Virus record (IMG/VR): IMGVR_UViG_3300031965_000009
Location: 1 to 64,000 of that record
Source of the DNA: a virus
Lineage: Duplodnaviria > Caudoviricetes
DNA length: 64,000 nt
Strand: one strand, 5' to 3'
The notes under the pieces were generated by a model. It was not told where the DNA came from, did no database searches, and saw only the letters and a program-made list of their open reading frames with translations. Positions 9,279 through 52,176 of the stretch are shown here, piece by piece (within the stretch, counting starts at the first letter, position 1; each line of letters opens with the position of its first letter). Position numbers and translations under genes: made by a program.

Positions 9279-9289
9279 GTTATTACTCC

Positions 9290-9318
9290 TTGACATTATG
9301 TAGACATTGGGTTACAAT
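9290..9318 (+). promoter_or_regulatory. Sigma70-type promoter, leaderless
   Basis: TTGACA-17 nt-TACAAT, then 6 nt to the ATG at 9325. Confidence 0.75.
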
Positions 9319-9324
9319 GTTCTA

Positions 9325-12739: not shown

Positions 12740-13616
12740 GCTCTTCCTCCTTGTTTCTCATGGCCTCAGCTATAGCATCGGCCACACTAATTCTTGTTAC
12801 CCTCTCGAATACTTGAAACGCAGGTGCCTCGTTAGCCTCTATAACATACACCTGTCTTGTGTCGCTATGCCTGACAAGGTCAACGCCACAGACACTTATG
12901 CCCAACGTCATGGCTGCCTGTTCTGCCATTCTTGCTACGTCAGAAGGGAAGCGACCGCTCTTGAACCGCTTACTCTTGCCATTAGAAGACGAGCAGACCA
13001 GCTTGTTCTTCTTGGGTCGGCGCTTGTACATGCCAATGCACCTGCCGTCAATGACCATAGCTCTATAGTCGCCGTTATTAGGTATGTACTCCTGCACCAG
13101 CCACTCCGTATCCACACCAGTAAACCCCTCTCCGTTCTCTTTACGATTCTCTAATGTTCCTCTAATCTGGTGTTCTATATCCTCTTCTCTAAGCAGGAAC
13201 GTGCCCATGCCTTTCCTGCCGTTCCGGTTGAACTTGAGTATGACAGGGTAAGAAGAGAGACTGGCAAGGGCCGTGTTAAGGGATGGGTAGATGGTTGTTT
13301 GCGGTTGATTAACCGCATCAAGCAGCTTTGTATAGTGCATGTGCTTGCTTCTTGCCCCAGGCCCATCTGTCAGCAGGTAGTTATCCATGATGATCTTACC
13401 ATGTTCCCTGCCCCATGCCACAAGCCTGTCTACAGTCCTGTACGCCCTGCCAACCGCCCTGAAATACCACAAGTTATCATTGGCTATGTCTACGGTTGCA
13501 TGTCTTGGTCTGCCAGACATGTCGAAGCTTATGTCGTGGTACATGACCACGTCCCAGCCGGCCTCGGCAAGCCGCATGTCGGTGTATTCGTTTTCAATAC
13601 GCTTGAACGCTATCAT
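12732..13616 (-). CDS. RimK-like ATP-grasp ligase
   Basis: Motifs LVQEYIP, DYRAMVIDG, CGVDLV and YVIEANEAP; TAATG coupling to the upstream gene. Confidence 0.88.
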   Translation of the reverse strand: MIAFKRIENEYTDMRLAEAGWDVVMYHDISFDMSGRPRHATVDIANDNLWYFRAVGRAYRTVDRLVAWGREHGKIIMDNYLLTDGPGARSKHMHYTKLLDAVNQPQTTIYPSLNTALASLSSYPVILKFNRNGRKGMGTFLLREEDIEHQIRGTLENRKENGEGFTGVDTEWLVQEYIPNNGDYRAMVIDGRCIGMYKRRPKKNKLVCSSSNGKSKRFKSGRFPSDVARMAEQAAMTLGISVCGVDLVRHSDTRQVYVIEANEAPAFQVFERVTRISVADAIAEAMRNKEEEHV

Positions 13617-13831
13617 TATCTCTTCTCCATGATACATATACTTTCTAATCTGTAACCATATAAACCATGCCTGCCCTCTTTGGGAACTTCAACATCATAA
13701 TACCAACCATCAGCAGAAAACTGATCCGGCCTGGCATCCATAATATCTACCACCAATCCATACCATCTTTTGGGCCAGCCACGAGTATGTATTATTCTTG
13801 CCTTATCACCTATTGCGAATCTTTGCTTCAT
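13616..13831 (-). CDS. Small KOW/SH3-like protein, CxM family (CIM)
   Basis: FAIGDKARI...ESICIMEKR. Confidence 0.7.
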   Translation of the reverse strand: MKQRFAIGDKARIIHTRGWPKRWYGLVVDIMDARPDQFSADGWYYDVEVPKEGRHGLYGYRLESICIMEKR

Positions 13832-14034
13832 GTCCCTTCCTCCATCATGCATCTACCTTTCTCGATGACCACTAGCTGATGTACGGGGTTGAAAGCCTGA
13901 TCATCCCACCGTTGTTGTGTACATGCTTCATCGTCACACCACCAGCCCCACACCTTTTCACCGTCTATATAGGTCACTATAGCATACCCATCTGTAATCA
14001 ACGACTGAACCTTATCACCCACTTCTATGTTCAC
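13828..14034 (-). CDS. Small KOW/SH3-like protein, CxM family (CMM)
   Basis: GTG start; IEVGDKV...GRCMMEEGT. Confidence 0.7.
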   Translation of the reverse strand: MNIEVGDKVQSLITDGYAIVTYIDGEKVWGWWCDDEACTQQRWDDQAFNPVHQLVVIEKGRCMMEEGT

Positions 14035-14264
14035 CCTTTTCCTCCCTGCATCATGCACCTGCCTTTCCCGATTATGGTTACGGTGTCTTCGTAGGCATAC
14101 ATCTCTTTGTTACCGTATGCTAGAACAGTGCGTTCCTTATCGTAGTACCACTCTCCCCATACTCGAGATTTCCCAAAATGTAGCGCGAAGTCAACCCGAG
14201 TCACAACCGTATAGATTCTTAGCCTACTACTGCAAACCAGATCACCTACTTCCACTGCCATCAT
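14031..14264 (-). CDS. Small KOW/SH3-like protein, CxM family (CMM)
   Basis: VEVGDLV...GRCMMQGGKG. Confidence 0.7.
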   Translation of the reverse strand: MMAVEVGDLVCSSRLRIYTVVTRVDFALHFGKSRVWGEWYYDKERTVLAYGNKEMYAYEDTVTIIGKGRCMMQGGKG

Positions 14265-14329
14265 TACCTCCTTGGGGCATGTAAGGGGCATGTAACATGC
14301 TCATTACATGCCCCAATACTTATAGCACG

Positions 14330-27382: not shown

Positions 27383-29965
27383 GTTCTTCTCCTCTGACGT
27401 ATTGTTTCATCTGTTCTAAGATTTCACGTGGTAATTGGTGCGAGCGTATGACTGGGTTATCCCAACCAAGCCTTAGAACCACCTCATCTTCCCCGGTTCC
27501 GCCTCCAATGCCAGAATTAATCTCTATGCCAGTTCCAGCCGGCAAGCCATGCGGAAGAAATCTGTCAAACACCGACCCCAACCAAATGTCCCCTTCCCAG
27601 CCCGCCAAGCCATGCAAGGCTACTATACCACCAATCAATATGTCATGAGCATCAAACTCTACTGGCTCATGATTGTCAAAAGTAAATGTCAGGTTCATTG
27701 TCTTACCTCCGTTATGATATTCATGCCATGCCTGTCAAGATCATGATGCCGATAAGCAAGAGCATGATAGCTGCAACTGCCATTACATAGCAACCAAATT
27801 GTTTCTCGTTCATTATGCTGGCTCCACCCATGCAAAGCATATCTCGCTAATACTGTAAAACCAATCCAACCAACCAACGGCATCCTTCCAGGTTGGCATT
27901 TCGTACAAGCATGTATCGCCACCATAATATATAACTTTAACTATAAACATGCTTCACCTCCTGTCATGTCCGGCATGGTTCCATGCTTCTTCATTTCACT
28001 CATTGCCATACCCCAGGCATCCATGACAGCATATTTGCTATCATGGTTTTTCCATGCCTCTTTCTTCTTGGGCATGACATGGCCAGGCATTCTCTTTTGA
28101 TTACGTTTAAGATATATTGCTTGCTTCATTTCATTTCTCCTTTATGTATAAAATCCATATTCTGTGATTGCATCAATAAGAAGGTCTATGATTTCCACGA
28201 TCTCCTCCTTGTCTTTGCCAACGAGCATATCTGCTACGGCATTCGTATCAAGTGGGTCTACTGCATCACCGTATTTTTTAATCCAATTATCGAACATGTC
28301 CATTCTCCTTATAACTAAGCAAACACATTACGAGCAACCCCATGCCGGTATAACACACCCGGCCCATCTAACATAGCCGTTACCGAACATGGCCCAACCA
28401 TCACCGCTATAATCTACGCTGTTGTGGTCGTCCACCCAACATGCAGCATAGCAAAAATCAATACGTACACTGCCATCATCGGCGAACATGTGCACGTTCA
28501 CCTGCCCTGCCAGAAGCGAGAGCATGATTATCAACAGGATAACAAGCTTCATGTTTCATTCTCCTTTGTACTAGCAAGCTAAAATAATTTTGCATGTAAA
28601 GCGTACTGTTCGGCCGCAGTTTTTTCTTTAGGCGTGAAGGCTTCGTCGGCCGATATGCTTGGGAGGATTACTGTGAAATCCTTATAATCCTCATTGTAAT
28701 ACACCATGATATTGCCGGTCGTGCACTCCATAAGCCCTCCGTCGCCCATGTACACTTGCAGTTCAACATTCCCATCTTGATTGACTGGAACTTCATAGTA
28801 CGTGCCATGATCTTTCGGCATGTCAATAACTGTTTTTCTGATCATGTGTGGTTGTTGATTGCGAAAACTAACTGCAAGCTCTCTTGCCTTTTGCGATGCT
28901 GTTTTTTCTAACATGTTCATTCTCCTTTATGCCTCCTGAAATATAAAAGCCCATGCCACATGGGAGACTTCATGCTGCATGGGCATGAAGCATGGTTATC
29001 GTACATGCACCGGGTCGAGACATGTCCCGGACGCCAGTCCTGTGATTCACCTGGTTCTCGTGAGGGGGTAGAGTTTACAGGTTACTCAGGACGAGGGCTT
29101 GTGCCCCTCACCTGCTCTCGGTAGCGTACATGCCTGACCGTTATGCTGGCTACTTAATAGCTTGCAGAAAAGTTTTTGCCATGTACGCCATACTCATGTT
29201 GTCACTTGTCATGTGACATACTACTAGACGTATTCTTTTGTGCGTTATATGCACACACCGTTATATCAAAAATGATAAAACGTGCATATTAATACCCCGC
29301 AATTTTTCATGCGTCATGCCCCGGCCTTGCTAGGGCCAGCGCATGAGCCATTCTGGATGGCGAAGGTGTATATTGGCAGCATGGTAAGGCATACCATGTC
29401 TTCAGCGCAGGGACGGCGTGCTCATGCACGACCGAGTGTTCGGGTTGTGTGCATGTCGGCCTCTGTGTGGGCGGAGTGAAGTCATGCAAGCATGACTCTG
29501 TAGCAGTGCGGCTACAATCCGTGTGCGCCTAGCTCTTTTGTCTCTACATGGGGTGTTCCTCACCGCCACGCCAGCTTATGATTTCGCCGACGTTCTCTAT
29601 GACTTAAACCACTCGCCTCATCCTGGTACGCCTCTTACGCCTGTTCGTTTTGTCGCTTGGTGAATTACGCTAGTTCGTTGTGTGCATTCTTATGCACCAT
29701 GCTTACAAACCCATGCACGCATTTGTCGTTTCCTAGCTACACAGTCACACGACAGAGTGTAGGCTGGCAATTTCTGTACCATTCAGCACATGATCTGAAA
29801 TCATGTTGCGCTCTGGTGTCATGCCTGTTACATGTGCATGTAAAGGTCATGCGTCTCAAGAGATTGAGTCAACTTTTGTCAAGTATGTGACGAGCAGTTG
29901 ACGCTCATTGTGTGTGCATATAACATGTAAAAAGGTCATGAAAAATGACCCAACCACGCGCCATC

Positions 29966-30015
29966 TATGCGTGTACATGTGCGCATGTGTACGCGCGTGC
30001 ATGTGTGCGTGCATG
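29966..30015. repeat. 50-nt perfect alternating purine/pyrimidine tract
   Basis: TATGCGTGTACATGTGCGCATGTGTACGCGCGTGCATGTGTGCGTGCATG. Confidence 0.85.
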
Positions 30016-30358
30016 AGAGAGGGCATGGTGTCATGTGTACACTATCTGTACTCGTGAGAGTACTGGCTGATAGTGTACATTTTCTGATTGGAGTCAATCA
30101 GGGGATAGGGGAAAGAAAAGGATTGGAGACAATCCCTACTCCCTTCCCCACCCAACATTTTAACAGGTTTTTTATCGGAGTCAACCCCCAAAAAGGAAAG
30201 GGAGGGAAAATGAAGGGAAAACAGCAACAGCCAGAACGGCCGATAATTTTTGCCCTTCCTATTAAATAGAAAAGGGGGAATTTAACCGGGGTTAACATTT
30301 TTTGAACCGACGTTCAGTTCTTCAGCCTCTTAAAATAGCAGAAAATTCTAGCCAATGC

Positions 30359-30397
30359 TGTAAAGTAGTTTACAAAAAAACTGTAAAATGCTTTACA
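30359..30397. promoter_or_regulatory. Two tandem palindromic operators, TGTAAA-N4-TTTACA
   Basis: Copies at 30359-30374 and 30382-30397, upstream of ORF 30548. Confidence 0.55.
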
Positions 30398-30547
30398 GCA
30401 ATGGGTATTGATTGGCTGTATTGTATTGGCAACTGACCGACAAACGGCCGATAGCTAGACAACCTTAACAACAGAATATGACCTATAGATTAATGGTTGG
30501 CATTATTATTTTAATGTTTTTGTGCGATAACACTATCGCTTATCCTT

Positions 30548-31402
30548 ATGGAGAAAAATAAAATGTCAACAATTAATTTACAAGATTTAATCGCTGTATT
30601 GCAAGGCATGGTACAACCAGAACAGGCACAATCCGTACCTACGCCAACATTGCCAACACCGACGCAACCAGCACGGCCGGCGGTCAAACCAGCGGCGCAA
30701 AAAAGCACGCACATTATCTACGCTTTACACCCCACCGGTTTAGTGCAAATTGGTGAAGTTGCCAATTATGGCAATGTTGCCTACGTTTCAAGCTCGCAGC
30801 AAAAGCATGAGCTTTGGCAAAACGCCAGCAATCTCACCGCTGGCTTAACACGTGAACAGCTTAACATCTTTGCAATCGCCAGAACGGCCGACGGACAGCC
30901 AATCATCTCAAGCAAGTCTGGTACCGTACGGACTTGGGCTTGTGGGTGCGGCCGCTTTGAACCGGGAAACACTTGCCGCTATGCCAAAAAGAACAAGCTA
31001 GCTTGTGCTGTTTCAAGCCAGCCAGGTGCAACCCAGGCGTCACCCCCAGCACGGCCAATCATTGCCGCTCCTGTACCTGTACCAGTAAACGTGCAAGTGG
31101 CAATGCCAAAGCCAAACAAACCGGCTACGCTTTCGGCGGCAAATTACACTTCTCAAGCATGGCCAAAACTCATCAACAAACAATGGCTTGACGCCGGTTA
31201 TAGTGCGGAATGGCAACGCTCACAAGCCGCCCGCGCCCGCTCTTACCTCATGACTGAGGGAGTAGGGATAAAGGATTTTTTCAATGATGTATATGGTGAA
31301 AAATTCACTGAGTTGTCTTACCCCCACATGATCGACGCGGCCGTACAAGTATCGTCCGAGTCTGAGCGGGCAAACAAATTCACTCCCGCTCCTATCAACT
31401 AG
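30548..31402 (+). CDS. Hypothetical protein with a Cys-rich (SWIM-like) motif and Pro-rich linkers
   Basis: WACGCGRFEPGNTCRY...LAC; followed by a strong terminator. Confidence 0.6.
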   Translation: MEKNKMSTINLQDLIAVLQGMVQPEQAQSVPTPTLPTPTQPARPAVKPAAQKSTHIIYALHPTGLVQIGEVANYGNVAYVSSSQQKHELWQNASNLTAGLTREQLNIFAIARTADGQPIISSKSGTVRTWACGCGRFEPGNTCRYAKKNKLACAVSSQPGATQASPPARPIIAAPVPVPVNVQVAMPKPNKPATLSAANYTSQAWPKLINKQWLDAGYSAEWQRSQAARARSYLMTEGVGIKDFFNDVYGEKFTELSYPHMIDAAVQVSSESERANKFTPAPIN

Positions 31403-31445
31403 CTAACAAGCTAGACTAGCCAATCATTAATCATAGGTCGAAAAC

Positions 31446-31483
31446 AAAAAAGCCAATCATGTAAAAGCATGATTGGCTTTTTT
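31446..31483 (+). terminator. Intrinsic terminator (bidirectional)
   Basis: AAAAAAGCCAATCATG-TAAAAG-CATGATTGGCTTTTTT. Confidence 0.85.
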
Positions 31484-32189
31484 GTTTTCTAGGCAATTTG
31501 AAAACTGCCTATTGACAAGTTAAAAAGTTTGTGCTACCCTACCAGCGGGGTGGGTTTGACCAGTTGAAAATTTTATAGTTTTTAAGAAGAGGTGAAAAGA
31601 TGTCAACAAAATACATACCAATGTTCCGTCAAGCAACGAGCGATAGCGAAATAGCTAGTGACTGGTATTACAGCCAGTCAGAATGCCACGCCAACAACCC
31701 ATATCACTGGTTTGTTGTTGAGCGTCAATTAGTTGAGCATTTTTCCATAGGCAATATTGCATACTGCACGGAAAAGATAGCCGAACAGGTTATCGGTTCT
31801 GATGGTAGAAGAAAATGACAATTCAGGAAATAAACGCACAATACGCAAGCAAGACGGCACAAGAAAAAGAGCAAGATTTCATGCTCTTGACGCAAGCATT
31901 GATCAAGATAGCAGGCATGTACAGCAGGGGACAATGGATCCCTGGCGGTAGAATTAGTTTATAGTTTTTTATAGTTTGAATGGAGAAATAAAATGTTTTT
32001 AGTAGCCTTGGTTTTTGTTCTTTTCTTCTTTGCCCTATGGTATGCCTTGAGCATTGGCTTAATCACACTGGGGACGCTTATTGTAGCATTTGCAATACTG
32101 GGGATAGCTGGCTTGATAGTCATGATGAGCTAGATCAGCCTGCTAGACAACTAAATAAGGTATCGGCCGGAACCGACAACACAAACCCT

Positions 32190-32218
32190 AGCCTATCTTA
32201 CCAGATAGGCTTTTTTTT
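32190..32218 (+). terminator. Intrinsic terminator
   Basis: AGCCTATCT-TACC-AGATAGGCT followed by a T run. Confidence 0.85.
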
Positions 32219-32404
32219 GCTTGCTTGTCACTCCCTCCCCTAGCTCATGCCTACCATGTCCCCTGAGCTATTCTTTGCCACCTAGAGGCGTTGATTATAC
32301 CTTAAACGATAATAAACGCCTTAGAACCAATCCTAGCCTACTCCTAGCCTGAATGACATGCTCTTGACTCATGCTCCTGTCTAGTCAATGCTTTAATGTT
32401 AAAG

Positions 32405-32831
32405 CATGTCAGCATGATACAAGTAACAGGTTAAACATGGTCTAGCATGGGGGACAAGCATGTCAGGCATGGCCTAGCAAGCATGAAAAGCATGGGTGCA
32501 TGGCATGTCATGCACCCATGCTTGCCATGCCATGCAAGCATGAACATGACATGGACAAAACATGGACAAAGCATGTGCATGTGGGTCCCATGCCATGCTT
32601 GCATGGAGGCATGGGACATGCGCCATGCCCCATGGTCATGCCCCAAAAACATGCCATTTTCATGCACTTACTTGACATAATCATGCTGGTAGTCATGCTA
32701 CATGCTACATGTTTCATGCTAGTATCATGATGTTTTTATTCTTTAATGAAGTACATGGAGGCATGCTAGGCATGTAAACATGCTCATGACATGCTCATGA
32801 GCATGTTCATGGACAGGCAAACATGCGCATG
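32405..32831. repeat. CATG-saturated non-coding tract
   Basis: About 47 CATG copies by hand count, with irregular short spacers. Confidence 0.9.
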
Positions 32832-32987
32832 CGAGTGTGTTATAAGAATTTTAGCTTGTTTTTTGTGATAAGGCAAGGGCATGGGGTGATAGCTGCCGCG
32901 AAAATTAGAAACATTCATGAAACTCTAATGTAATGTTCTAATATCACGGCATGGCAGGGAATGTTATGTAACATGCGGCATGTTAGA

Positions 32988-33413
32988 TCATGCGTGCTTG
33001 TTCATGCTCATGTCGAGCATTTTTGTTGTTGAATACACGCCGCTGGTGGAGGATGGCATTCGCCGGACTACATTGTCATCAAGGATCGCAATGATAGCTT
33101 CGTCGAATTCTGTGTGTTGGTCGTACCCCAAGACATAAAGGTCAAGGGCAGAATTGGCTATTTGCATTACATCATCGTCCCCGCACAGGAGAATAACCTC
33201 TGACACCGAGGGAACAAGTAACAAGTTTCTAGCCCTCGTCTCCTGGTTATAATATGGCCGCCTGCCCTTATTGTTCTCGACTGTAGCGTCTGACACAACA
33301 AACACAACCAATTCTTCTCCAAGAGAAGAACAGAACTCCAGCATGGAAATATGTCCTGGATGAAGGATGTAGTCGTATGTTCCACATGTCCCAACTCTTT
33401 TTATTTTATTCAT
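32988..33413 (-). CDS. Cytidylyltransferase (HxGH family, GCT/RibL-like)
   Basis: GTYDYILHPGHI; YNQETR; VLGYDQ. Confidence 0.85.
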   Translation of the reverse strand: MNKIKRVGTCGTYDYILHPGHISMLEFCSSLGEELVVFVVSDATVENNKGRRPYYNQETRARNLLLVPSVSEVILLCGDDDVMQIANSALDLYVLGYDQHTEFDEAIIAILDDNVVRRMPSSTSGVYSTTKMLDMSMNKHA

Positions 33414-35708
33414 ATCTTCATGCTCCTAGCTCCTTCCATGTTATAAAGTACTTGTCATGCTTTTCGTCTGTAAGCTCAATGCCATGCTCTTGAACGCTTA
33501 CACTAACCATGCCTTGCCCCTCCCATGTTGCATGGCTCATGCACCATGCAAAGAGCATGTTTGTCATCTCCTCCCACTTCAGCCATTCCTCTGGTTTGAA
33601 GCTATCTTTTGTTATCATTATCACCTCTCGGAACTAGAACTCATAACAAAGAGTTCGTCATGTATTTCCTTGTTGCTTTTCTTCCATTTGTTAGACCGGA
33701 GCTTGTCCAGGTACCTGCGATTGCCAATAAGTGCTGACGCCAAACCATTTCTAATCGAAGATTCGCTTGGTTCGTACCAGCCGTCTATGGCAAAGTATCT
33801 GCCGTACCTGGCGCTGTATGCATCATTGATTGTGCTCTTTACCCAGTAGTCTGTCCAGGCATGCTCAACGTTCTTGTACACATACCACATGGTTCTGTCG
33901 TCTACGGTGGCGATGTATTCCATGATAAACTTCATGTCTCCATGCCCAAAGTCTTCCGGCCATGCTTCAACCGGCCATGAACGCAAGGCCCATGGTTCTG
34001 CCTTGCGTTTTAATGACAGGAGGACATGATACCCATGCGGTAGTTTTATGTCTGTCTCTAGGTTTACTATCATGCTACCACCCATGCCGGCATGTCTCCA
34101 TGCTCCCATTCTCTAGCCCTGTCTACAACGTAATCAGGCGCAGGATCATGCGGGTCTATCTCGCAGATAGCATTGAATTCAGCTTCTTTCATCCAGTCTT
34201 CCCCATACAAGTCCCTGCACAGTGCCTGCCCCCAATCCCATGACTTACCATTGATGTCATGCACCGTACCGCCATGCGCCCTACTCATCCTTGATACCCA
34301 TTCTATCAGGTACGCCCATGTGTCATGTAAGTTGTTATTCATTTGTCTTCACTCCAGGTCACTCATTGGGTTCCAGTCAAATATAGCTCTCGTAAGCTCT
34401 TCTATCCTGGCGCGTTCAGAGGCAGTATACTGTCCATTACCCTTATCATTAAAATAGCAGCGGGCTGCATCTGCCATGTCTGCAAGCGACTTAAATTCGC
34501 TACCAGACAGACTTATTGTAATTTCCATTGCTGGTGCGGTTATCTTCATTATCATTCTCCTTCATGCTTTCATATCCTACTGTTTATCCATGGCCATACA
34601 TCTTTGCCGTACACAGCTTCAATCACTGCATCGAACAAGTAATGTTCAATATTTTGACGGTCAAGACCAGACCATGGGTGATCGGCATCGGCGATAGAGG
34701 CTTCTGCAATACCCATGACGCCGCTCCAGTCTATCTCTTCTAGCTTTTCTGGTTTCGCTACATGCTCTGGTTGCGCATGTTCAATATTATTACTCATGTT
34801 TCATTCTCCTCTAGTGTTCTCATAACCACCTTTTTAGAAACTCCAAGCCGCCCTCGTATCTGGCATACCTGTCTATCCACGATATGATAAAGGCAAGCAT
34901 TTCGACATCGCCAAGTTCAATTAGCTTCTCGGCAAGAGTATCGTAATCTTTGCTCTCGACAAGGAGCATGAGTTCAATCTTTGTTATTTCAGGCATGTCA
35001 TGCCTTGCCTCCCCAGCCCTTGCCCCGGTAAATGACCGCTGGCTTGCTGATAAGCTTCTTGCTTTCCTGCTTGCACTTAGGGCATGATGGCAAAGGCGAG
35101 ACATGCTCATGCTCGAATACATGCCCGCATGACATGCACCTGTAATCGTATTTCATTCTTCACCCTCCTCAAATTCACTCAGGTGGCAAAGTACCACCCC
35201 ACCTTCTTCTCTATCTGACGCGCCGCAGGCTGCATGGAATCCGAAACGAACCATGCCATTTTCCAGGTTCTTCCAGCCACCGACCTCGATGTAGTCTGGC
35301 GATGGTAGCGTTGATTTCTTTGCAGCAAGGCTAACCATTCTTTTGTGCACGTTTTTCCAATGCTCTATGCATATTCTTGCCTCTTCTTGATTCATTCTTC
35401 ATTCTCCTTTGTTAATCGCGTTGCGGGTCATGGATCAGTTCTCTGTACCTCGCCACCGCCTCCGATATTTTCATTGATTCATCGCCATTGGATAGTCCGT
35501 CGCTACCATAACTCCAACCCTCCGAGACGAAGTAATTTAGTATCAACCCGATCTCTACGGTTCTTACCTCTTCCTCGATCTGGTTCCACTCGTGCCACGG
35601 TGGAGACCAGAGCTTATACTCGTTCCCATCAACCGTAACAATAAACTCGCTCCCGGCAACACTAAATACATTTCCAGTCCTTTGTATATTTACTGACGTG
35701 CTCATGTT

Positions 35709-36281
35709 TCATTCTCCTTGTAATGGCGAGTAAGCATACCCGCCATTCCGTAGTTCAAAGTGCAGGTGACTATACCCCACACTAACATTACCTGTCTCCC
35801 CCACTTTACCTACCATGCTCCCCTGCCCAACGCTCTGGCCGCATGCAACATGCACTTCGGACAGGTGAAACAACAACGAGTACCACCCGCCCCCATGTGC
35901 TATGGCTACCGTCTCCCCGAACCCCCATGTTGACCACCCGGCCCATATTACCACGCCGCTTGCTGGTGCAAGAACAGCACTACCTGTAGGGGCGATGATG
36001 TCCACGCCGGTATGCTTGACAGAGAATGGTCGGCGCTCGTTTACCACCCCGCCTGGCACAGGGAAGAGCAGCCCTGGCCTTGCCCCACTCCCCTGGGGCA
36101 TGCCATAGCCTGGACAAACCCCCTCGTCATCTTCTGTCAGCCCAACCCATGGCTGGCCAATGCCCCAATAACCCTGTTCCTGTACCTGGGTATATGTTAC
36201 AACCTGTACAGGTTCAGGAACATGAACAGGCGCATAGCATGGGAAGAGCGTGAACAGGGAGCACATGATGTATAGTATCAC
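35709..36281 (-). CDS. Secreted M23 peptidase
   Basis: Signal-peptide-like N-terminus; HTGVDI, FHL and HLHFE motifs. Confidence 0.85.
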   Translation of the reverse strand: MILYIMCSLFTLFPCYAPVHVPEPVQVVTYTQVQEQGYWGIGQPWVGLTEDDEGVCPGYGMPQGSGARPGLLFPVPGGVVNERRPFSVKHTGVDIIAPTGSAVLAPASGVVIWAGWSTWGFGETVAIAHGGGWYSLLFHLSEVHVACGQSVGQGSMVGKVGETGNVSVGYSHLHFELRNGGYAYSPLQGE

Positions 36282-36566: not shown

Positions 36567-36788
36567 TCATTGCTTAACCTCCATAAGGCATGGTCTTTGT
36601 TCTCTGGCCATTCTTCTGATGTCTTCACCAATATGTGAAGCAAATATGTCATCCCATCTCCTCATGCTATCATATATCTCATAGGCGCTGCTGAAAGCAT
36701 CGGCGCATGCCTGCATGGTGATACCAAATCCATTGATAACTCTTACGGCCTCTGTTGCCATTCTCGTTAGCTTATCAAGATCGTCCAT
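36567..36788 (-). CDS. Small helical protein with C-terminal CLM
   Basis: Ends RPCLMEVKQ; no KOW motif. Confidence 0.55.
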   Translation of the reverse strand: MDDLDKLTRMATEAVRVINGFGITMQACADAFSSAYEIYDSMRRWDDIFASHIGEDIRRMAREQRPCLMEVKQ

Positions 36789-37293
36789 GTTTCACCTTAC
36801 TGCGTGCTTGGCACGATCTGCCAGTTGATAACATACACCCCGCTTCCTGGTTCAGGCAGCGATATGCCAACGGCCCCGAAGTCATCACCAAGCACCTGCG
36901 CCGTGGCATTCTCGCCCGGAGATAGGGAGCCTGTGGCCGAAGCAACGATTATGGCCTCCCCGGTGCAGACGGGTATGAACTCAATGCCTGCCCTGCCCCA
37001 TGTATCATTGTCCAACGGTATCTCCGCTTTTCCGGCCTGCACTGCGTTCGTGCACATGGTTCTTGCCTGCGCCTGCCCAGACATGGCAAGCAGCAATGGT
37101 AGTAACAGTAATATCATTTTCTTATTCATCTAGTAACTCCTTTGCTCTAATGTAAATACAATCATGTTCATGATTAACATTGTTCCTTCGTGACATAGAA
37201 CGACAGAAGAAACACATATAATCAACTACAGTATAATTAACTACAGGATCACCATCATCGGCGAACCACTCCTCCCACAATTCAAGCGCCCGT

Positions 37294-37704
37294 TCAGCAC
37301 GCCTGATATTCATTGGGCTTTTTATTTTCATCGTTCATAATCCTCTCTACTAATTCATACTTTGTTAATTTGTGCAGCCTTGAAAACCTGTTCACGTAAT
37401 CACGCCTGACCCACCACTTGCCATGCTGCTTGATACCAGGCAAGCGGCCGTCAAAGCACATCTTGCCAACGGTGCGGGCCGCTAACCCAAGCCTGTCAGA
37501 TGCTGCATTTATATCAAAATACAGCGTGCTGTCAAATACTGGCTTTTCTGCTTCCTCTACCGGCAAGGGGGCAAGGTTCAATGCCCGCCTGACGACAGGG
37601 ACGGCATGTCCCGGAACACCATATTTCTTCCAGTTCATGACCGTGGTGTACGGCTTTTCCAGCTTCTTGCTCAGGTAGTTCACCTGCCATGATTCAAGTC
37701 TCAT
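37294..37704 (-). CDS. Double-HTH DNA-binding protein (excisionase/MerR-like)
   Basis: INAASDRLGLAARTVGKMCFDGRLPGIKQHGKWWV. Confidence 0.7.
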   Translation of the reverse strand: MRLESWQVNYLSKKLEKPYTTVMNWKKYGVPGHAVPVVRRALNLAPLPVEEAEKPVFDSTLYFDINAASDRLGLAARTVGKMCFDGRLPGIKQHGKWWVRRDYVNRFSRLHKLTKYELVERIMNDENKKPNEYQAC

Positions 37705-37705
37705 G

Positions 37706-37924
37706 TTATCTTTTCTCCATGGGGCATGGTTTCTCTTCCACGAACCCGTCATTCCATCTCGGCCCCGGCTGATACCCCCAGATGTACCTTCCACCATCTG
37801 CCCACCAATCGCCTGTTTCATGATACGATATATAGTATTCGTTCAGACTCCTTGCCAACATACTACGAAAGTCCTCAGTCTTGACACCAACCCTTACTGT
37901 AATAAGTGTTTTATCGGACTTCAT
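37706..37924 (-). CDS. Small CxM-family protein (CPM)
   Basis: Ends KPCPMEKR. Confidence 0.55.
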   Translation of the reverse strand: MKSDKTLITVRVGVKTEDFRSMLARSLNEYYISYHETGDWWADGGRYIWGYQPGPRWNDGFVEEKPCPMEKR

Positions 37925-38222
37925 TCTTCACCTCCATCATACACCTATAATCTATGAACTCAAGCTTACTTCCAAACACAAAGTTAGCCCTAGTTTCATC
38001 TAGCATGATATGCTCTACTGGTACAGATAGGTCTTGCTTGTCAAATACAACGATGTAGTCATGTGCATCACTGTTTTGTTTTGGATTATGGTACATTGAA
38101 CGTCTTGCTACAGCCCAACATATCTGCCCGGCCTTCACCCCGCTAGGGTCATTACTAACAACCCTCACCTTCTGTACTTCAATGGCCCCAAACCCCCTGT
38201 AGTCATGTATTGCGTTCGGCAT
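37911..38222 (-). CDS. CxM-family protein (CMM)
   Basis: Tandem paralog of 38203-38535 (IHDY...DY.VVF...LEFI..CMMEVKN). Confidence 0.7.
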   Translation of the reverse strand: MPNAIHDYRGFGAIEVQKVRVVSNDPSGVKAGQICWAVARRSMYHNPKQNSDAHDYIVVFDKQDLSVPVEHIMLDETRANFVFGSKLEFIDYRCMMEVKNEVR

Positions 38223-38535
38223 TCTTAACCTCCATCATGCATTCTTCTGGTATAAACTCCAGGTGTCTTTCGTATACATACCCGGCCCTACCAATCCTCA
38301 TTAATTCATGCAAGGGCAAAGATAGGGCATCCTTTTTGAAAACCATTACGTAATCAACCTCGAGCCGCATCGCTTCGGTCCTGTCCCTCCCCCTTATCGA
38401 CTCTATAGCCTTGTGGTTACTCGATACTACCCACCCCATCTTCCCGGCCCCTAGACCCGGCTGCCCGACTGTCACCCTTACCATTCTTGGCTTGTCTAAT
38501 GCCTTGTACGAATAGTAGTCATGTATGTTGCTCAT
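38203..38535 (-). CDS. CxM-family protein (CMM)
   Basis: ATGA overlap with the DnaB stop; ends EECMMEVKNAERNT. Confidence 0.7.
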   Translation of the reverse strand: MSNIHDYYSYKALDKPRMVRVTVGQPGLGAGKMGWVVSSNHKAIESIRGRDRTEAMRLEVDYVMVFKKDALSLPLHELMRIGRAGYVYERHLEFIPEECMMEVKNAERNT

Positions 38536-39842
38536 TGTACAATACTCCTTGTTATATTCATGAAGCTTGCCGCCCGTGGGTTCCAAACAAGCTCAACCGT
38601 CCCCACTGAACCATCCCGGTTCTTGGCGACAATGTTTTCCGCCAACTGCTTTCTGCTACTTCCCATGGGGTCATAGTAATCATCCCTGTACAGGAATGTA
38701 ACAGAGTAAGCATCTTGTTCAATGGCTCCTGACCCACGCAGGTCAGCAAGTGTAGGCCGCTTGTCACTCCTGCTTTCCAGTGACCTGTTTAATTGCGCCG
38801 CAAGAATGGACGTTACATCGGCCTCCTTGCTTATCTGTGTCAATCTCTTTGTTATCTTGGCGATGTCGTAGACATCATTACCACTGCCCTTGTCAGGCTC
38901 CATGAGGTGCAGGTGATCATAGATGATCAGGTCTAATCCATGCACCGCCTTTATCCTGGCTACCTTGGCTCTGGCCTGTGACGGCGTTAGCCCCCCAGTC
39001 TCGTCAAGGAAAAGAGACGAGCTATTAATCTTGTCAACGACAGCATGCACCTTATACATGGCGGCATCACTTAGCTTGCCGCCCCGCAGCAAGTGCATGT
39101 CTATGCCTGTCTCGTGAGCCACAAGCCGCTGGGCCATCTGCTTGGCAGTCATCTCAAGGCTGAAAAACAGCACCCGCTTGTGCTCGATGAACAGGTTGTG
39201 GGCAATCACGCCTGTCAGCCAGGCCGACTTGCCCATGGCCGGCCGAGCGGCAAGGACATGCAGGAACGGGGACGCAAGTCCACCACCCATGAAGTTGTCA
39301 TACTCGCTATACCCAGTCCTTGAACCAACCAGTTCACCTTGATCAAAGTAATCAAGGTATTCACTTGCCACCGCCTTACCGGTCTTGACATCGCTGTTCA
39401 CCCTGGTTGTAGAAAGGTCTAGGATAGCGCTTTCGCTTGCGGCTATCTGCTCTTCTAAGTCCCCCCCCTCGTCATAAGCCAGATTGGCCGTCATGTTGGC
39501 CAGGGCAAGTAGCTTCCTTCTGCCGGAGGCATCCTTGATTATCCTGGCATAGTCTTTGGCATTCCATGATGTTGGAGAAGCGTTAATCAGACCAAGCAAA
39601 TACCCTTCCCCACCCATGTCTTCTAGCCTTCCACGTTTCCTTAAGTCATCCGTGACAGTGATAAGGTCTACACTCTTGTTATTATTGTCAAGACTAACAA
39701 GCGATTCATATACCCAGGCATTTACCTCCCGGTAAAAGTCTGTAGCCTCAATCTGTACATGCTTGATGGCATCAGGGTCAATGAGCAATGCCCCCAATAA
39801 TGCCTCTTCTGCTTCTATGTTATTTGGTGGGCTTTCGTTCAC
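38532..39842 (-). CDS. dnaB: Replicative DNA helicase
   Basis: PPNNIEAEEALLGALL; Walker A AARPAMGKS; FFSLEM; AQLNRSLE; LADLRGSGAIEQDA. Confidence 0.95.
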   Translation of the reverse strand: MNESPPNNIEAEEALLGALLIDPDAIKHVQIEATDFYREVNAWVYESLVSLDNNNKSVDLITVTDDLRKRGRLEDMGGEGYLLGLINASPTSWNAKDYARIIKDASGRRKLLALANMTANLAYDEGGDLEEQIAASESAILDLSTTRVNSDVKTGKAVASEYLDYFDQGELVGSRTGYSEYDNFMGGGLASPFLHVLAARPAMGKSAWLTGVIAHNLFIEHKRVLFFSLEMTAKQMAQRLVAHETGIDMHLLRGGKLSDAAMYKVHAVVDKINSSSLFLDETGGLTPSQARAKVARIKAVHGLDLIIYDHLHLMEPDKGSGNDVYDIAKITKRLTQISKEADVTSILAAQLNRSLESRSDKRPTLADLRGSGAIEQDAYSVTFLYRDDYYDPMGSSRKQLAENIVAKNRDGSVGTVELVWNPRAASFMNITRSIVQ

Positions 39843-41115: not shown

Positions 41116-41359
41116 GTTATTCCTCGTATGGAATCGTTTGGGGGTGGAAGCTCAAAATAGAATAGAGGTAGCAGGAAATTATCATGGCCCAGGAACTCGT
41201 ACTGGCCACTGTGCTTCTTGAGTATTTCCTCTATATCTTTCGATGTCGGGGTAATCAATGCCCCGTTCAACCCACTTCGATCCAGTGTGTATATCATAAT
41301 ACCAGCAATTCTATCACAAAATACCTAAGTTGACCTTGTTTTAATTAAACGTTAATGTG

Positions 41360-41368
41360 TGATACAAT
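41360..41368 (+). promoter_or_regulatory. Extended -10 promoter, leaderless
   Basis: TGaTACAAT followed by 7 nt and the ATG at 41376. Confidence 0.55.
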
Positions 41369-41375
41369 TGATTCT

Positions 41376-42005
41376 ATGAGGGACACAGCACCAAAGCGAA
41401 ATGAGATTCAAATACTAAATGACCGCAGGCGAACTGCCCAGCTACTGCTTGAAGGGTACACCCATCAGCAAATACGTGATGTACTCGAACAAGAGACTGG
41501 AATTACATTGTCGCGTCGTACAATTACCAATGATGTCGGGGCTATCAAGAAAGACTGGGCCGAGCAGCAAAGGGCCAGCGTCCATGCTCTTGTCAATCAA
41601 GAGATTGACAGGCTGGACTTCAGCGAAGCTGAAGCATGGCGGGCATGGCGGGCCTCATGCGGCGACGAGGTTCAGGAAACTGTCGAGAAGATAGCCAGGT
41701 ACATGAAGCAAGAGGATGGCTACGTACCCGACGAGGATGAATACGAATTAAGGGTTCAGCGCGTGACCCAAATAATCAAGAAGAGCGGTGGCGTAGGCGA
41801 CCCAAGATTCTTTAATATCATCCTCGACCTACAGAAAGAAAGGCGGAAGCTGCTGGGATTGTATGCGCCAAGCAGGTTGGGCATTGATGTCACCACCAAG
41901 TCGGAAATCATTATCAAGGGCTATGCCGTCAAGGACGTGTCGCCTGACGCATGGCCGTCCCTGCCAAGCAATGACATCATCGAGGGAGAGATAGTTGAAC
42001 GGTAA
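41376..42005 (+). CDS. Terminase small subunit-like protein
   Basis: N-terminal HTH; RRKLLGL...SEIII tail; overlaps the large terminase start. Confidence 0.65.
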   Translation: MRDTAPKRNEIQILNDRRRTAQLLLEGYTHQQIRDVLEQETGITLSRRTITNDVGAIKKDWAEQQRASVHALVNQEIDRLDFSEAEAWRAWRASCGDEVQETVEKIARYMKQEDGYVPDEDEYELRVQRVTQIIKKSGGVGDPRFFNIILDLQKERRKLLGLYAPSRLGIDVTTKSEIIIKGYAVKDVSPDAWPSLPSNDIIEGEIVER

Positions 42006-45000
42006 AGCAGACCTGTATAATGGCCAGCGCATGTATCATCCTTCTGCGATGACTACGCACAATTCCACCTACAGGTACATCAACACATTCAACCCCCTGC
42101 CATGGCAGGCCAAGCCATGGGCAGACATCTCGCCTGTCATATTATTTTCGGGCTCGAGGGGAGGTGGAAAAGCGCTCTATATAGACACCGATATTGCCAC
42201 CACCAACGGATATGTTAAAATGAGGGACATATCGGTTGGTGACATAGTGTTTGACGAGCGTGGAAAACAAACAACGGTTACCGAGGTAACTGATGTGATG
42301 CTTGCTAGGCCATGCTATGAAATTAGCTTCTCGACTGGAGAGTCTGTCATCTGTGACGCTAACCACGAATGGGTTGTTGGTATAGCCGGGAACAGGTCGA
42401 AGAGAGTGATTGAGACCGCCGAGACGATGTTTCATAATCAAAAAACCGGGAGGGAGAATAGCTATTCGGTTTCAGTGTGTGGTTCGGTAGAGCACGACGA
42501 AAAGGAACTTCCGGTATCGGCATGGTTGGTTGGATTTCTTATCGGAGATGGGTACCTTAAAAACGTATCTTTCACAACGGCAGATACAGAGATAGCAGAC
42601 AGGGTAGCAAGTGAGCTAGAAGAGGGACACTCGGTCGAACACAGACCTAGCGCCAGCAATAACTATACGTACCAGATACTAACAAACAGAGCAAGGTCTA
42701 AGGATATAGAAGTAAATTCTGGCAGGGTATATCTACACTCCGATGGCAAAAAATACGTAGCCATGGCCAATGGAGATGGGACAGAGGATGGATATAAACG
42801 AGACTCGGAATATTTGGGGATGTTCGATACAGAAGAAGAGGCATGGAACGTTCTCATCGGCCATACCGGAGGAATGAAATTAACTCTGCACGGACATGGT
42901 CTTATATACAACCTGTCTAAACTAAGTCTAAGAGACAAGACATCGGCTACAAAATTTATCCCAGACATCTATAAATATTCCTCTGTGAACCAAAGACTAG
43001 AAGTACTCAGGGGCCTTATGGATGCGGACGGACATATACAACCGGGTCGCGGACGGGCGGAGATAACAGTTATAAGCGAGAGGCTTGCTAATGACATATT
43101 CGAGATAGCGTGCAGTCTAGGAATAAAGGCCCATATCGCTAAGAGAGATATGAAGTTTAACGGCGAGCCATATGATGCGTGGAGAGTACAGTTTACGTCT
43201 GATATTCAAGTATTCTGGTTGCCAAGAAAGGCTAATCTAGTGAAGTCTAAGCTGCGTAAAACTCAATACAGAAGGTATATAACATCAATCAAGAAGGTCG
43301 ATTCTGTTCCTGTAAAATGTATTGAAGTTGACAGTCCGCTTCACTCTTACTTAATCACGAAGTCTCATATTCCAACCCATAACTCCCGTCTTGCTGCCGA
43401 ACGTGCTCATGCCTTCTGCTTGAAATACCCGAACGCTGTTGTGCAGGTCGTGCGCAAGACCAAGTCAAGCTTGAAGAAGTCTGTCCTGCATAACCTGACA
43501 ACCAAGGTCATTGGCGATGATCCCAGGGTCTTGCATCACAAGAATGACAGCATGTTTGTCTACGACAACGGCAGCACGCTCATATACGATGGCATGTCTG
43601 ACCCGGCGGCAAGAGAAAGGATGAAGAGCCGGGAGCCGGACATGGTGTGGATGGAAGAGGCTAAGGACTTTACGGAAGAAGATTACAACGAGATCATAGC
43701 ATTGGTTCGTGGGACGGCCGCCCCATGGAGGCAGATTGTTCTTTCGACGAACCCTGACGGGCCATTGCATTGGATTAACAGAAGGCTTATCTTACAGGAC
43801 GAGGCTAAAGTATACTACAGCGGTGCTAAGGATAACCCGCACCTACCGATAGAGTACATAGAAAGCCTTGAATCATTGACTGGTGTTCAGTACCAGCGCG
43901 AGGTGCTTGGCCTGTGGGTTAGCGGTAGCGGTATTATATTCGACACCTGGAAAGACGATCAGAACGGTAAGAGTAGTAACGTTACGGCCGAAGCAGTCAT
44001 TGACCCGCATGGCGGGGACATTATCTGGGCCATAGACGATGGCTATTCCGGGACGTATGATAGGGAAAGCGGGTATTACACCGCCAATTCTCATCCACGA
44101 GCCATGCTCCTTGCGCAGCGTCGTCCCGACGGCGTGCTTGTCATTGCCGACGAAAGCTATGCCATTGAAACACTGGCAAGCAATCATATAGCCGAGAAGC
44201 TCAAGGACTGGCCCAGGCCGTACATGATCGTGCGGGACAGGGCCGCTGCGTCATTGGACGGGGCATGTCGGGAGAATGGGTTAAGAAATATTATCTACAA
44301 CACCATGCACGTTGACGAATCTATCAAAGAAATGCGCAAGTGGCTGGCCGAAGACCATAACGGCGTCAGGAAAGTGCTTGTCCACCCACGCTGCAAAATG
44401 CTCAGGAGCGAGATGGCCCAGTATTCCATGGATAATGATGGCCGGGTAATCAAGGAGCATGATAATGGCTGCCTTGTTGCCGGAACCATGGTGGCTACGC
44501 CAGACGGAGAAAAGAAAATAGAAGACATAGTGTCTGGTGACATGGTCATGACAAGACTTGGCCCAAGGCCCGTTGAAGTTTCGTCCATGACGGACTCAGA
44601 CGCAGAAATATGGCGATTAGAATTAAGTGACGGAAGATTTATAGAGGGTACAGGTAATCACCCAATATATGTGAAGGGTGCTGGATTCGTTGAATTGCAC
44701 TCCATGTCTCCTGGTGATACAATAGATTGCATATCTAATTACATCAGGAGAAACGAATGTCGAAATCAGAAGTTATCACTTACGGGGGAATCAGATTCCG
44801 GCGATACCCAAACTCTAAAAGATGGGCAAACAAATCGTATTATTCCCCAGGAATTGCTGACAGGCAACGGGGAATCGAGAGCCTTCACAGAGAGATTTAC
44901 AAGGACAATTTTGGGCCAATTCCAGATGGCGCACACATCCATCACGCGGATGGCAACCCGCTTAATAATGACCCAAGCAATCTTGTTTCCGTCTCTAGTA

Positions 45001-45549
45001 ACAGCGAACACCAGAAGCTTCATGCTGGCGAAAGAGTATACCATCCACCAACCAGGGCAGCCCTTTCGGCCGCTGCCGAATGGCACAGAAGCGACGAGGG
45101 ACGAGCATGGCACAGAGAACATGGTAAGAACTCCTGGATTGGAAGAGAACCAATTACCCTATCGTGCAACCAGTGCGGATCAAGCTACGAAACACTTGAC
45201 AGGAAGGGAACAAATAGATTCTGTTCAAACGCCTGCAAGTCCTCATTTAGAAGAGCCTCTGCCGTCGATGACGAAGAGAGGATATGCGAGTGGTGCGGAG
45301 CAGAGTTCTCAATCAATAAATACAGAAAAACAAGGACGTGCACAAGATCGTGTGCTGCGTACATACGCAACAGGGAAAAGAAAACCGGTATATAACCTGG
45401 CCGTCGCTGATAATCACGAATTCTTCGCTAATGGTATTTTAACCCATAACTGCGACGCACTTCGTTATCTCATATGGAACGAGTCATACGGCAGGGGTAG
45501 AAAGATTGATGTTGTATCATGGTCACAAATAGAGAGGGCACATGCCTAA
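41995..45549 (+). CDS. terL: Terminase large subunit with two inteins
   Basis: Spliced Walker A GSRGGGK|S; Walker B VWMEEA; STNPDGP; C-terminal nuclease ...C-DALRY. Confidence 0.92.
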   Translation: MNGKADLYNGQRMYHPSAMTTHNSTYRYINTFNPLPWQAKPWADISPVILFSGSRGGGKALYIDTDIATTNGYVKMRDISVGDIVFDERGKQTTVTEVTDVMLARPCYEISFSTGESVICDANHEWVVGIAGNRSKRVIETAETMFHNQKTGRENSYSVSVCGSVEHDEKELPVSAWLVGFLIGDGYLKNVSFTTADTEIADRVASELEEGHSVEHRPSASNNYTYQILTNRARSKDIEVNSGRVYLHSDGKKYVAMANGDGTEDGYKRDSEYLGMFDTEEEAWNVLIGHTGGMKLTLHGHGLIYNLSKLSLRDKTSATKFIPDIYKYSSVNQRLEVLRGLMDADGHIQPGRGRAEITVISERLANDIFEIACSLGIKAHIAKRDMKFNGEPYDAWRVQFTSDIQVFWLPRKANLVKSKLRKTQYRRYITSIKKVDSVPVKCIEVDSPLHSYLITKSHIPTHNSRLAAERAHAFCLKYPNAVVQVVRKTKSSLKKSVLHNLTTKVIGDDPRVLHHKNDSMFVYDNGSTLIYDGMSDPAARERMKSREPDMVWMEEAKDFTEEDYNEIIALVRGTAAPWRQIVLSTNPDGPLHWINRRLILQDEAKVYYSGAKDNPHLPIEYIESLESLTGVQYQREVLGLWVSGSGIIFDTWKDDQNGKSSNVTAEAVIDPHGGDIIWAIDDGYSGTYDRESGYYTANSHPRAMLLAQRRPDGVLVIADESYAIETLASNHIAEKLKDWPRPYMIVRDRAAASLDGACRENGLRNIIYNTMHVDESIKEMRKWLAEDHNGVRKVLVHPRCKMLRSEMAQYSMDNDGRVIKEHDNGCLVAGTMVATPDGEKKIEDIVSGDMVMTRLGPRPVEVSSMTDSDAEIWRLELSDGRFIEGTGNHPIYVKGAGFVELHSMSPGDTIDCISNYIRRNECRNQKLSLTGESDSGDTQTLKDGQTNRIIPQELLTGNGESRAFTERFTRTILGQFQMAHTSITRMATRLIMTQAILFPSLVTANTRSFMLAKEYTIHQPGQPFRPLPNGTEATRDEHGTENMVRTPGLEENQLPYRATSADQATKHLTGREQIDSVQTPASPHLEEPLPSMTKRGYASGAEQSSQSINTEKQGRAQDRVLRTYATGKRKPVYNLAVADNHEFFANGILTHNCDALRYLIWNESYGRGRKIDVVSWSQIERAHA
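42172..43383 (+). mobile_element. Intein 1 (Ala1, class 3-type) with LAGLIDADG endonuclease
   Basis: Starts ALYIDT; block B ANHEW; block F VKCIEV; ends IPTHN|S; motifs GFLIGDG and GLMDADG. Confidence 0.9.
44470..45450 (+). mobile_element. Intein 2 (Cys1, class 1)
   Basis: CLVAGT...TGNHP...VYNLAV...ILTHN|C. Confidence 0.9.
44757..45395 (+). CDS. HNH endonuclease overprinted out of frame within intein 2
   Basis: Own RBS AGGAG (44746-44750), ATG and TAA; LHREIY...IHHADGNPLNNDPSNL; C-terminal CxxC Zn fingers. Confidence 0.85.
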   Translation: MSKSEVITYGGIRFRRYPNSKRWANKSYYSPGIADRQRGIESLHREIYKDNFGPIPDGAHIHHADGNPLNNDPSNLVSVSSNSEHQKLHAGERVYHPPTRAALSAAAEWHRSDEGRAWHREHGKNSWIGREPITLSCNQCGSSYETLDRKGTNRFCSNACKSSFRRASAVDDEERICEWCGAEFSINKYRKTRTCTRSCAAYIRNREKKTGI

Positions 45550-51711: not shown

Positions 51712-51987
51712 ACTCCTCTAATGTAATGTTCTATACCATCATGCCTTGCCACCTGTAATGCTCCTGTGTGAAGGCAAATAATTCTCTCATCTTCCTCTAA
51801 TGTAATGTTCTACTCGCGGCGGAACATTAATACAACATGAGAAAACCGCTAAAATGAACATGAATTATTTGCATTTTTCTTGACTCCATGATAGCATGTT
51901 ACATGCTCCTGTCCTGGTATCATGCTCATGCTTTTATTTCTTTTATTATTTCTTTTACATGCTGCATGCTACTAGATCATGATCATG

Positions 51988-52176
51988 CTACATGCTCATG
52001 TAACATGGGCGTTCGACTTTTTTCAGCATGCTCTTGTGGACAATGCCAAGCTCTGTCTCACCGCAATTGACTTCAACAAACTGAGTCACGACACTCTCCC
52101 TGATAACTACTCCCGTCACTCCTTTGTGACACGGGCATGTAAGCTCCACCCTATCCCCAACGTTAAATTCATTCAT
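51988..52176 (-). CDS. Small KOW/SH3-like protein, CxM family (CYM)
   Basis: AAGGAG RBS; MNEFNVGDRVEL...RPCYMSM. Confidence 0.7.
   Translation of the reverse strand: MNEFNVGDRVELTCPCHKGVTGVVIRESVVTQFVEVNCGETELGIVHKSMLKKVERPCYMSM

Follow-up and report, generated by a model that had tools for sequence, protein, structure and literature searches.

A dense, irregular array of CATG sites at the peak of a genome-wide CATG signal in a phage of the class Caudoviricetes

Results

The array and its genomic setting

The window considered in our study comprises the first 64 kb of a viral contig of 79,278 bp from IMG/VR (IMGVR_UViG_3300031965_000009). Nucleotides 1-196 of this contig recur at 79083-79278 with one mismatch (A/G at position 69). 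The contig is thus self-closing, and about 79,082 bp probably represent the complete genome, although the record is labelled as linear and 64% complete. Given this closure, the late operon of the plus strand starts at 41.3 kb, crosses the junction and extends to about 3.7 kb. Pfam and domain searches identify a terS-like gene at 41355-42005 and a terL gene with two inteins at 41995-45549.

At positions 32405-32831 lies a non-coding DNA element crowded with the tetranucleotide CATG. To its left is a three-gene island of the plus strand (30100-32330), which contains 6-7 CATG per kb and is closed by its own intrinsic terminator (32190-32211, plus strand), a 9-bp stem followed by a run of seven T residues. 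A weaker terminator-like hairpin is predicted on the minus strand at 32178-32161. To the right, a cytidylyltransferase-like gene recognised by Pfam (32988-33413, minus strand) is the last of a leftward operon that also encodes an M23 peptidase, an HTH protein (37294-37821) and, further upstream, DnaB (38532-39842, minus strand, Pfam). A DnaC/IstB-like loader is encoded at 11662-12465, 26 kb from DnaB. A preliminary description of this DNA had placed the tract between a terminator at 32190 and the end of a leftward operon, with AT-rich patches nearby, and these three elements of the setting are as described.

Several features bear on the transcription of the tract. No minus-strand terminator was detected between the gene at 32988-33413 and the hairpins at 32160-32211. 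A weak sigma-70-like promoter match at 32848-32876 (minus strand; 9/12, a match to the consensus only) is directed leftward into the array. In addition, an exact 18-mer (CTCTAATGTAATGTTCTA on the plus strand) occurs in three copies in the genome, at 32923-32940, 51716-51733 and 51795-51812; each copy is located 3-8 nt upstream of a minus-strand ATG, and two of them have a GAGG-like box. From these positions, the 18-mer is probably a shared leftward expression signal, and its copy at 32923 points into the array, upstream of a possible open reading frame of 44 codons (32784-32918, minus strand) whose reality is uncertain. The copies at 51716 and 51795 adjoin a cluster that ranks second in the genome for CATG density, with 12 sites in 120 nt (51887-52007). 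Considering the lack of a minus-strand terminator, the weak promoter match and the 18-mer together, leftward transcription of the tract is probable.

A direct count gives 47 CATG starting within 32405-32831, a tract of about 430 nt (427 nt), which corresponds to 110 CATG per kb, or one site per 9 bp. The number expected per 430 nt is about 1.7 from the base composition and about 6 from the average of this CATG-rich genome, so that the earlier estimate of about 47 sites, against about 2 by chance, is confirmed by the exact count. The enrichment extends beyond the core: 57 CATG start in the wider zone of 32340-33010, and this extended zone (32340-33012) reaches the final codons of the gene at 32988-33413. 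No other 430-nt window of the genome has more than 18 CATG, the next densest ones of the 64-kb window holding 16-18. For comparison, 80 unrelated loci from bacteria, each about 20 kb long, have a maximum of 9 CATG per 430 nt, and the ratio of observed to expected CATG ranges from 0.38 to 1.83, with a median of 0.96.

The sites of the array are irregularly spaced, at distances of 5-28 nt (mainly 5-9), with no abutting pairs. Tandem Repeats Finder reports only micro-arrays with 2-6 copies of units of 6, 7, 11 and 22 nt, and the repeat search across the array gives no array-wide unit or period. The statement that the spacers are irregular and that the tract is not a tandem repeat thus holds.

Regarding the form of the sites, 44 of the 57 (77%) are part of the asymmetric word GCATG, counting either strand, and the preferred form in the array is R-GCATG-D; the symmetric GCATGC is under-represented in the zone, with 2 occurrences versus about 9 expected. 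The orientation of GCATG is organised in blocks. The nine words of the block at 32404-32508 are all on the plus strand, while the ten words of the block at 32617-32719 are all on the minus strand (CATGC on the plus strand), and between both blocks there is a centre of mixed orientation. A near-perfect palindrome of 50 bp (32481-32530), with loopless arms of 25 nt that are 88% complementary, is located at the first switch between plus and minus GCATG. A third block (32754-32831) has 11 sites of mixed orientation, equivalent to 14 per 100 nt, and contains a perfect inverted repeat of 13+13 nt (32777-32807). Inside the array, an AT-rich gap (32713-32753) ranks among the least stable 0.5% of the 40-mers of the window and could be a site of unwinding.

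CATG across the genome

CATG is the most over-represented tetranucleotide of the genome, at 3.26 times the expectation from base composition, while the runner-up reaches 1.84 times. This excess is also present within genes. The 66 genes with at least 120 codons contain 671 CATG, versus 396 +/- 12 after shuffling synonymous codons within each gene, and the choice of codons depends on the context in the way that completes the word. Histidine is encoded by CAT in 83% of the cases before a codon starting with G, versus 46% otherwise; the codon preceding methionine ends in C in 74% of the cases, versus 34% otherwise; and serine, proline, threonine and alanine use NCA in 64% of the cases before TGN, versus 25% otherwise. 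At four-fold sites, the base that completes CATG has a frequency of 66-68%, versus 27-28% elsewhere, and the other three bases are all depleted. Between 64% and 89% of the synonymous opportunities are already CATG. The enrichment is symmetric, being present in the three codon phases and in both gene orientations. CATG is, in consequence of these observations, under genome-wide selection at the DNA level. A mutational drive along one path, such as VSP-like T-to-C repair or CpG decay, was considered and discarded, since the three alternative bases are depleted while the TATG-type neighbours are not. The data from four-fold sites and neighbouring words argue for selection, or for a repair process favouring the whole word.

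Phages are expected to lose short palindromes, which are cut by restriction enzymes. This phage shows such classical restriction-site avoidance for GATC, CTAG, CGCG, TCGA and ACGT, which are depleted to 0.27-0.57 of expectation, whereas CATG behaves in the opposite way; with five other palindromes depleted, the CATG excess is a specific exception. Two longer words that contain or overlap CATG are scarce: GCATGC has 34 sites outside the tract, versus about 84 expected with independent flanks, and ATGCAT has 18 sites versus 33 expected.

Not all regions share the signal. There is no CATG excess over codon shuffles in the HNH/NUMOD4 gene at 3694-4236, in the gene of 284 amino acids at 30.5-31.4 kb or in the tail-region gene at 66298-68328, which suggests that the CATG-poor islands and genes are recent acquisitions. 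Other apparently non-coding DNA contains 25-28 CATG per kb (28.9-30.1 kb), and the remaining intergenic DNA contains about 13 per kb. The tract is the peak of the genome-wide CATG signal. As a separate observation, a CATG-rich and apparently non-coding region of about 1.6 kb to the left of the CATG-poor island (28920-30550) includes a 50-nt run of strictly alternating pyrimidines and purines (29966-30015), which is Z-DNA-prone, contains 4 CATG and is the only such run of at least 18 nt in the genome.

Spacing, folding and phasing

The distances between neighbouring sites were compared with a null model that preserves the local CATG density. Neighbours at 6-8 bp are found 120 times versus 56 expected, with a maximum at 7 bp (49 versus 18.5), and runs of at least four sites in a 6-8 bp register are found 6 times versus 0.6 expected. 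Conversely, abutting sites (CATGCATG) occur once versus 21 expected, a scarcity that is partly due to the two-fold depletion of ATGCAT. As 7 is not a multiple of three, the close pairs do not come from repeated amino-acid motifs. Hairpins formed by close CATG pairs were also considered and ruled out, with flank complementarity at the level of chance and no extension of the stems. We infer that the spacing rules could be the footprint of something that covers about 7 bp of duplex DNA at each site.

The predicted folding of the two strands of the tract is alike, with energies of -186.9 and -190.8 kcal/mol and z-scores of -7.5 and -8.0 relative to dinucleotide shuffles. When the order of the CATG units is shuffled, the native sequence folds no better (z = -0.97); therefore, the tract has no specific higher-order structure, and a fold of this kind is ruled out. 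Helical phasing was likewise rejected, its signal at 11.2 bp not being significant (family-wise p = 0.09). Rfam and tRNA searches of the tract gave no match.

Genes for replication, packaging and methylation

We found neither a DNA polymerase nor a primase domain, and the phage probably replicates with the host replisome. With DnaB and a DnaC-like loader encoded and no polymerase found, a cis-acting origin is probably needed. The cumulative GC skew changes course at about 41 kb, in step with gene direction, and shows no turn at the tract. The distance from the tract to terS and terL is 8.5-9 kb, and the tract belongs to a different transcription unit.

A six-frame search of the whole contig for D12, N6/N4 and C5 DNA methyltransferases (PF02086, PF01555, PF00145) found none. 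In the Pfam analysis of the 98 phage open reading frames, among the families listed (25 of 27), methyltransferases are restricted to the sugar cluster and there is no SeqA- or MutH-like reader; besides the sugar cluster, the listed matches relevant to methylases or readers are an HNH/NUMOD4 endonuclease, HTH_17, a RimK-like ligase and AAA/IstB. The open reading frames neighbouring the tract are orphans in both Pfam and PHROGs, and no reader was recognised among them.

Small genes of the minus strand at 7056-14291 and 36567-38586 encode proteins that end in C-x-M, with the cysteine and the methionine invariant among the 10 that were aligned. These proteins have no Pfam or PHROG match and are candidate DNA-binding proteins. 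A link between the CATG tract and the C-x-M tags was considered and rejected, as the tag is a motif at the protein level and 5 of the 10 tags are encoded without CATG.

Relatives, look-alike sequences and host

Among GenBank phages, nothing matched the DNA of 30000-36000 or the portal protein, and neither the two flanking genes nor the nearest DnaB had a relative in IMG/VR. The closest relatives, with DnaB 50-55% and portal 65-71% identical, were found only in Logan assemblies. Among them are a contig of 78,425 bp, whose DnaB is 55% and whose portal is 71% identical, and a contig of 14.6 kb. The portal family is large, and one substantial relative was compared, the 80.5-kb contig IMGVR_UViG_3300049995_000120 (hereafter G001), whose portal is 43% identical and whose capsid-region protein is 62% identical. 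In this distant relative, CATG is at 1.08 times the expectation, there is no tract, and the early genes are unrelated. A non-coding gap among its early leftward genes (64765-64915) contains 12 tandem units of 12 nt (GCAAGCccacag), a regular, iteron-like arrangement. GCAAGC, evaluated as a motif common to this tandem array and the tract, was discarded as too weak, with 5 copies in the tract. The most over-represented tetranucleotide of G001 is GCGC (2.29 times the expectation), and AGCT is nearly absent (0.17 times).

Look-alike sequences were defined as 5 CATG within 42 nt. The scan of IMG/VR with this pattern gave 38 loci, of which the six densest, with 23-25 sites per 430 nt, are all regular tandem repeats. 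In the scan of JGI metagenomes, the matches listed, at least 120, are mostly (CATGN)n microsatellites, and none of those listed is accompanied by a gene related to the structural or replication genes of the phage.

The DnaB of the phage is best matched by DnaB of Chloroflexota (Anaerolineae), with 42-45% identity, a similarity that hints at Chloroflexota as the host phylum. In 401 sampled Chloroflexota genomes there is no relative of the portal, and the pattern CATG-N3-CATG-N3-CATG is absent beyond 7-nt microsatellites, while the phage has 76 per Mb. In the literature searched, neither such an array nor a phage genome enriched in CATG is described.

Discussion

The tract compared with known systems

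Among the closest parallels of the tract are the clustered GATC sites of E. coli oriC, controlled by Dam and SeqA, and of the P1 pac site. Both are cis-acting sets of irregularly spaced 4-bp palindromes; at oriC there is one GATC per 22 bp, and the pac sites form two groups on either side of a central region. The tract resembles them in having a 4-bp palindrome clustered far above chance with irregular spacing, and it resembles pac in particular in that opposed GCATG blocks flank a mixed centre. It differs from them in that its word is CATG, in being about 2.5 times denser than oriC and in that the searches of the phage recovered neither a cognate methylase nor a SeqA-like protein. Unlike pac, it is not located beside the terminase genes (terS, 41355-42005). 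Unlike GATC, which to our knowledge is not enriched genome-wide in E. coli, CATG is enriched about 3.3-fold across the phage genome.

Arrays bound by ribbon-helix-helix proteins, such as the omega heptads on pSM19035 and the metboxes of MetJ, consist of 2-10 contiguous sub-sites of 7-8 bp in direct or inverted orientation. The phage sites similarly favour a 6-8 bp register, with runs of 4-7 sites, whereas the array has about 50 units with variable spacing, and spacings of 5, 9, 11 and more are common. Among the Pfam and PHROG matches listed for the neighbouring open reading frames, there is no ribbon-helix-helix protein or ParA-type ATPase, although small proteins of the former type are easily missed. 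The iterons of phage and plasmid origins, in turn, are few, regularly spaced and 12-22 bp long. The tract shares with them, and with the array of G001, the position of a non-coding array in the early leftward block of a DnaB-carrying phage, with AT-rich DNA adjoining. In contrast to iterons, its units of 4-5 bp are irregularly spaced, and their word recurs across the whole genome; instead of regular direct repeats of 12-22 bp, there are only micro-arrays of 2-6 copies.

The genome-wide component finds its nearest counterpart in the highly iterated palindromes of cyanobacteria, HIP1 (GCGATCGC) and the alternate HIPs, which are present far above expectation throughout the genome and also within genes (PMC4390886, PMC6105098). 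HIPs accompany a cognate methylase (PMC4390886), and the model of Elhai explains them by a methylase-linked, repair-type drive or by selection (PMC4390886, PMC6105098). The CATG of the phage is comparable in its over-representation across the genome, including genes, where its codon choice depends on the context. The differences are that HIPs are 8-mers of cellular chromosomes while the phage word is a 4-mer with no phage methylase found, and that the phage has a single hyper-dense non-coding array. We know of no hyper-dense array described for HIPs.

Each of these nearest parallels has at least one defining feature that the tract lacks; the tract is therefore a member of none of these families, and we file it in kind as a clustered short palindrome read on DNA.

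A proposed docking array for a putative reader of CATG

In this genome, CATG is used wherever the genes permit, with its highest density in the tract, and so some factor probably reads this word on the DNA of the phage. We tentatively favour the explanation that the tract is a high-avidity array on which this putative factor docks or nucleates. The array would comprise a very dense, unordered set of about 50 short recognition sites with CATG as the core and R-GCATG-D as the form, and it would act as the high-avidity node of a genome-wide CATG mark kept by selection in the phage lineage. The reader, acting on double-stranded DNA, would most likely be a small dimeric protein covering about 7 bp per site. 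The array would be its main point of docking or nucleation and not a passive by-product, and from there the reader could organise, coat, replicate or mark the phage chromosome. The array holds only about 5% of the CATG sites of the genome, yet its density is about nine times the genome average, which suggests that local density counts. Coating or compaction of the genome and titration of the reader are possible alternatives for the role of the array. Against the docking array, no reader was recognised, G001 lacks both the excess and the tract, folding does not depend on the order of the units, helical phasing is not significant, and the GC skew makes no origin-like turn there. That the tract is a replication origin seems to us unlikely; the context relevant to this role is that it lies where the DnaB operon ends, that it contains an easily melted AT-rich gap and that no polymerase was found.

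The preliminary description had proposed for the tract a function as an array of sites read on DNA, for example by a binding protein, or as a methylation-gated origin or pac site. The first part of this proposal stands, in view of the genome-wide selection of CATG at synonymous sites, the excess of spacings of 6-8 bp, the near absence of abutting sites and the lack of any hairpin logic; the second part finds no positive support, as detailed below.

Alternative explanations

The main rival of the docking array is that the tract is a functionless spacer, either a gene that has decayed or untranslated sequence at a 3' end, that has been saturated by the genome-wide force with the contribution of replication slippage. 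With about two-thirds of the free sites already CATG, unconstrained DNA might reach this density without any function, and the 64-89% occupancy of the synonymous opportunities implies that the force is very strong. The micro-duplications with units of 6, 7, 11 and 22 nt are typical of slippage or "cryptic simplicity", the folding energy is indifferent to the order of the units, and the phasing is not significant. Moreover, the tract adjoins the CATG-poor island, apparently acquired recently, so that the region is evolutionarily fluid. Against this explanation, the other apparently non-coding DNA has 13-28 sites per kb, versus 110 per kb in the array, useless DNA of 0.4-0.65 kb is rarely kept by phage genomes, and the arrangement of orientations in blocks, like the avoidance of GCATGC, is suggestive of constraint. 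We consider a passive origin of the tract possible but somewhat unlikely.

A second explanation is the one proposed at the outset, in which CATG sites are the targets of a CATG-specific adenine or cytosine methylase, and the cluster gates the initiation of replication or the packaging cleavage through its methylation state. The irregular clustering of a 4-bp palindrome is the pattern of oriC and P1 pac, the left and right GCATG blocks flank a central region in opposite orientations, there is an AT-rich gap within the tract, and the iterated palindromes of cyanobacteria accompany cognate methylases (PMC4390886). Nevertheless, the six-frame searches of this apparently complete genome found no D12, N6/N4 or C5 DNA methyltransferase, and no SeqA or MutH family is listed among the Pfam matches, although a CATG methylase could be supplied by the host and a reader could be of a novel type. 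The mapping of the GC skew places its turn at about 41 kb, following gene direction, and none at the tract, which lies 8.5-9 kb away from terS and terL. In addition, gating alone would leave unexplained the selection of CATG at about 1000 places across the genome. Because nothing testable supports this explanation and several of its expectations fail, we regard it as improbable.

A function at the RNA level appears about equally improbable. According to this explanation, a leftward transcript, coming from the 3' end of the DnaB operon or starting from 32923-32940, would act as a CAUG-rich sponge for an RNA-binding factor or as a multivalent self-pairing RNA. No minus-strand terminator was detected from 32988-33413 to the hairpins at 32160-32211, a promoter-like site and the thrice-repeated 18-mer point leftward into the tract, and the sequence folds far better than its dinucleotide shuffles (z = -7.5). 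However, both strands fold equally well and do so independently of the order of the units, the tract matches no Rfam family, and the symmetric enrichment of the palindrome in three phases and both gene orientations points to duplex DNA.

The two remaining explanations are very improbable. Small peptides rich in His, Met and Cys could be encoded by the reading frames of 69-78 codons that are open on both strands (for example, the 77-78-codon frames at 32431-32667, minus strand, and 32447-32680, plus strand), but the six frames are all partly open because stop-poor, CATG-rich DNA gives such openness by itself, the spacing of the sites follows no 3-nt reading frame, and no homologue or family was found. 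An assembly artefact of low-complexity reads, conceivable for a contig from a metagenome assembly, is opposed by spacers that are unique and irregular, so that the tract is not a collapsed repeat, by the enrichment of CATG across 79 kb and within conserved genes, and by the closure of the contig on itself through an overlap of 196 bp with a single mismatch.

Implications for the biology of the phage

The presence of CATG at about two-thirds of the free positions, together with an array of 430 nt, points to a strong sequence-specific force acting on the DNA of this phage. For the docking array that we favour, the 430-bp fragment is a ready-made bait for capturing the putative reader. A bolder form of this explanation, which we consider doubtful, is that CATG constitutes a DNA "identity code" read by density, written at most of the positions that the proteins permit, in which a phage-encoded reader would nucleate on the array of 47 sites and then spread along, or bridge, the approximately 1000 dispersed sites. 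If true, this would represent a form of phage chromatin or a self-marking system for which no counterpart has been described, and whose reader could compact, protect or replicate the phage DNA and distinguish it from the DNA of the host.
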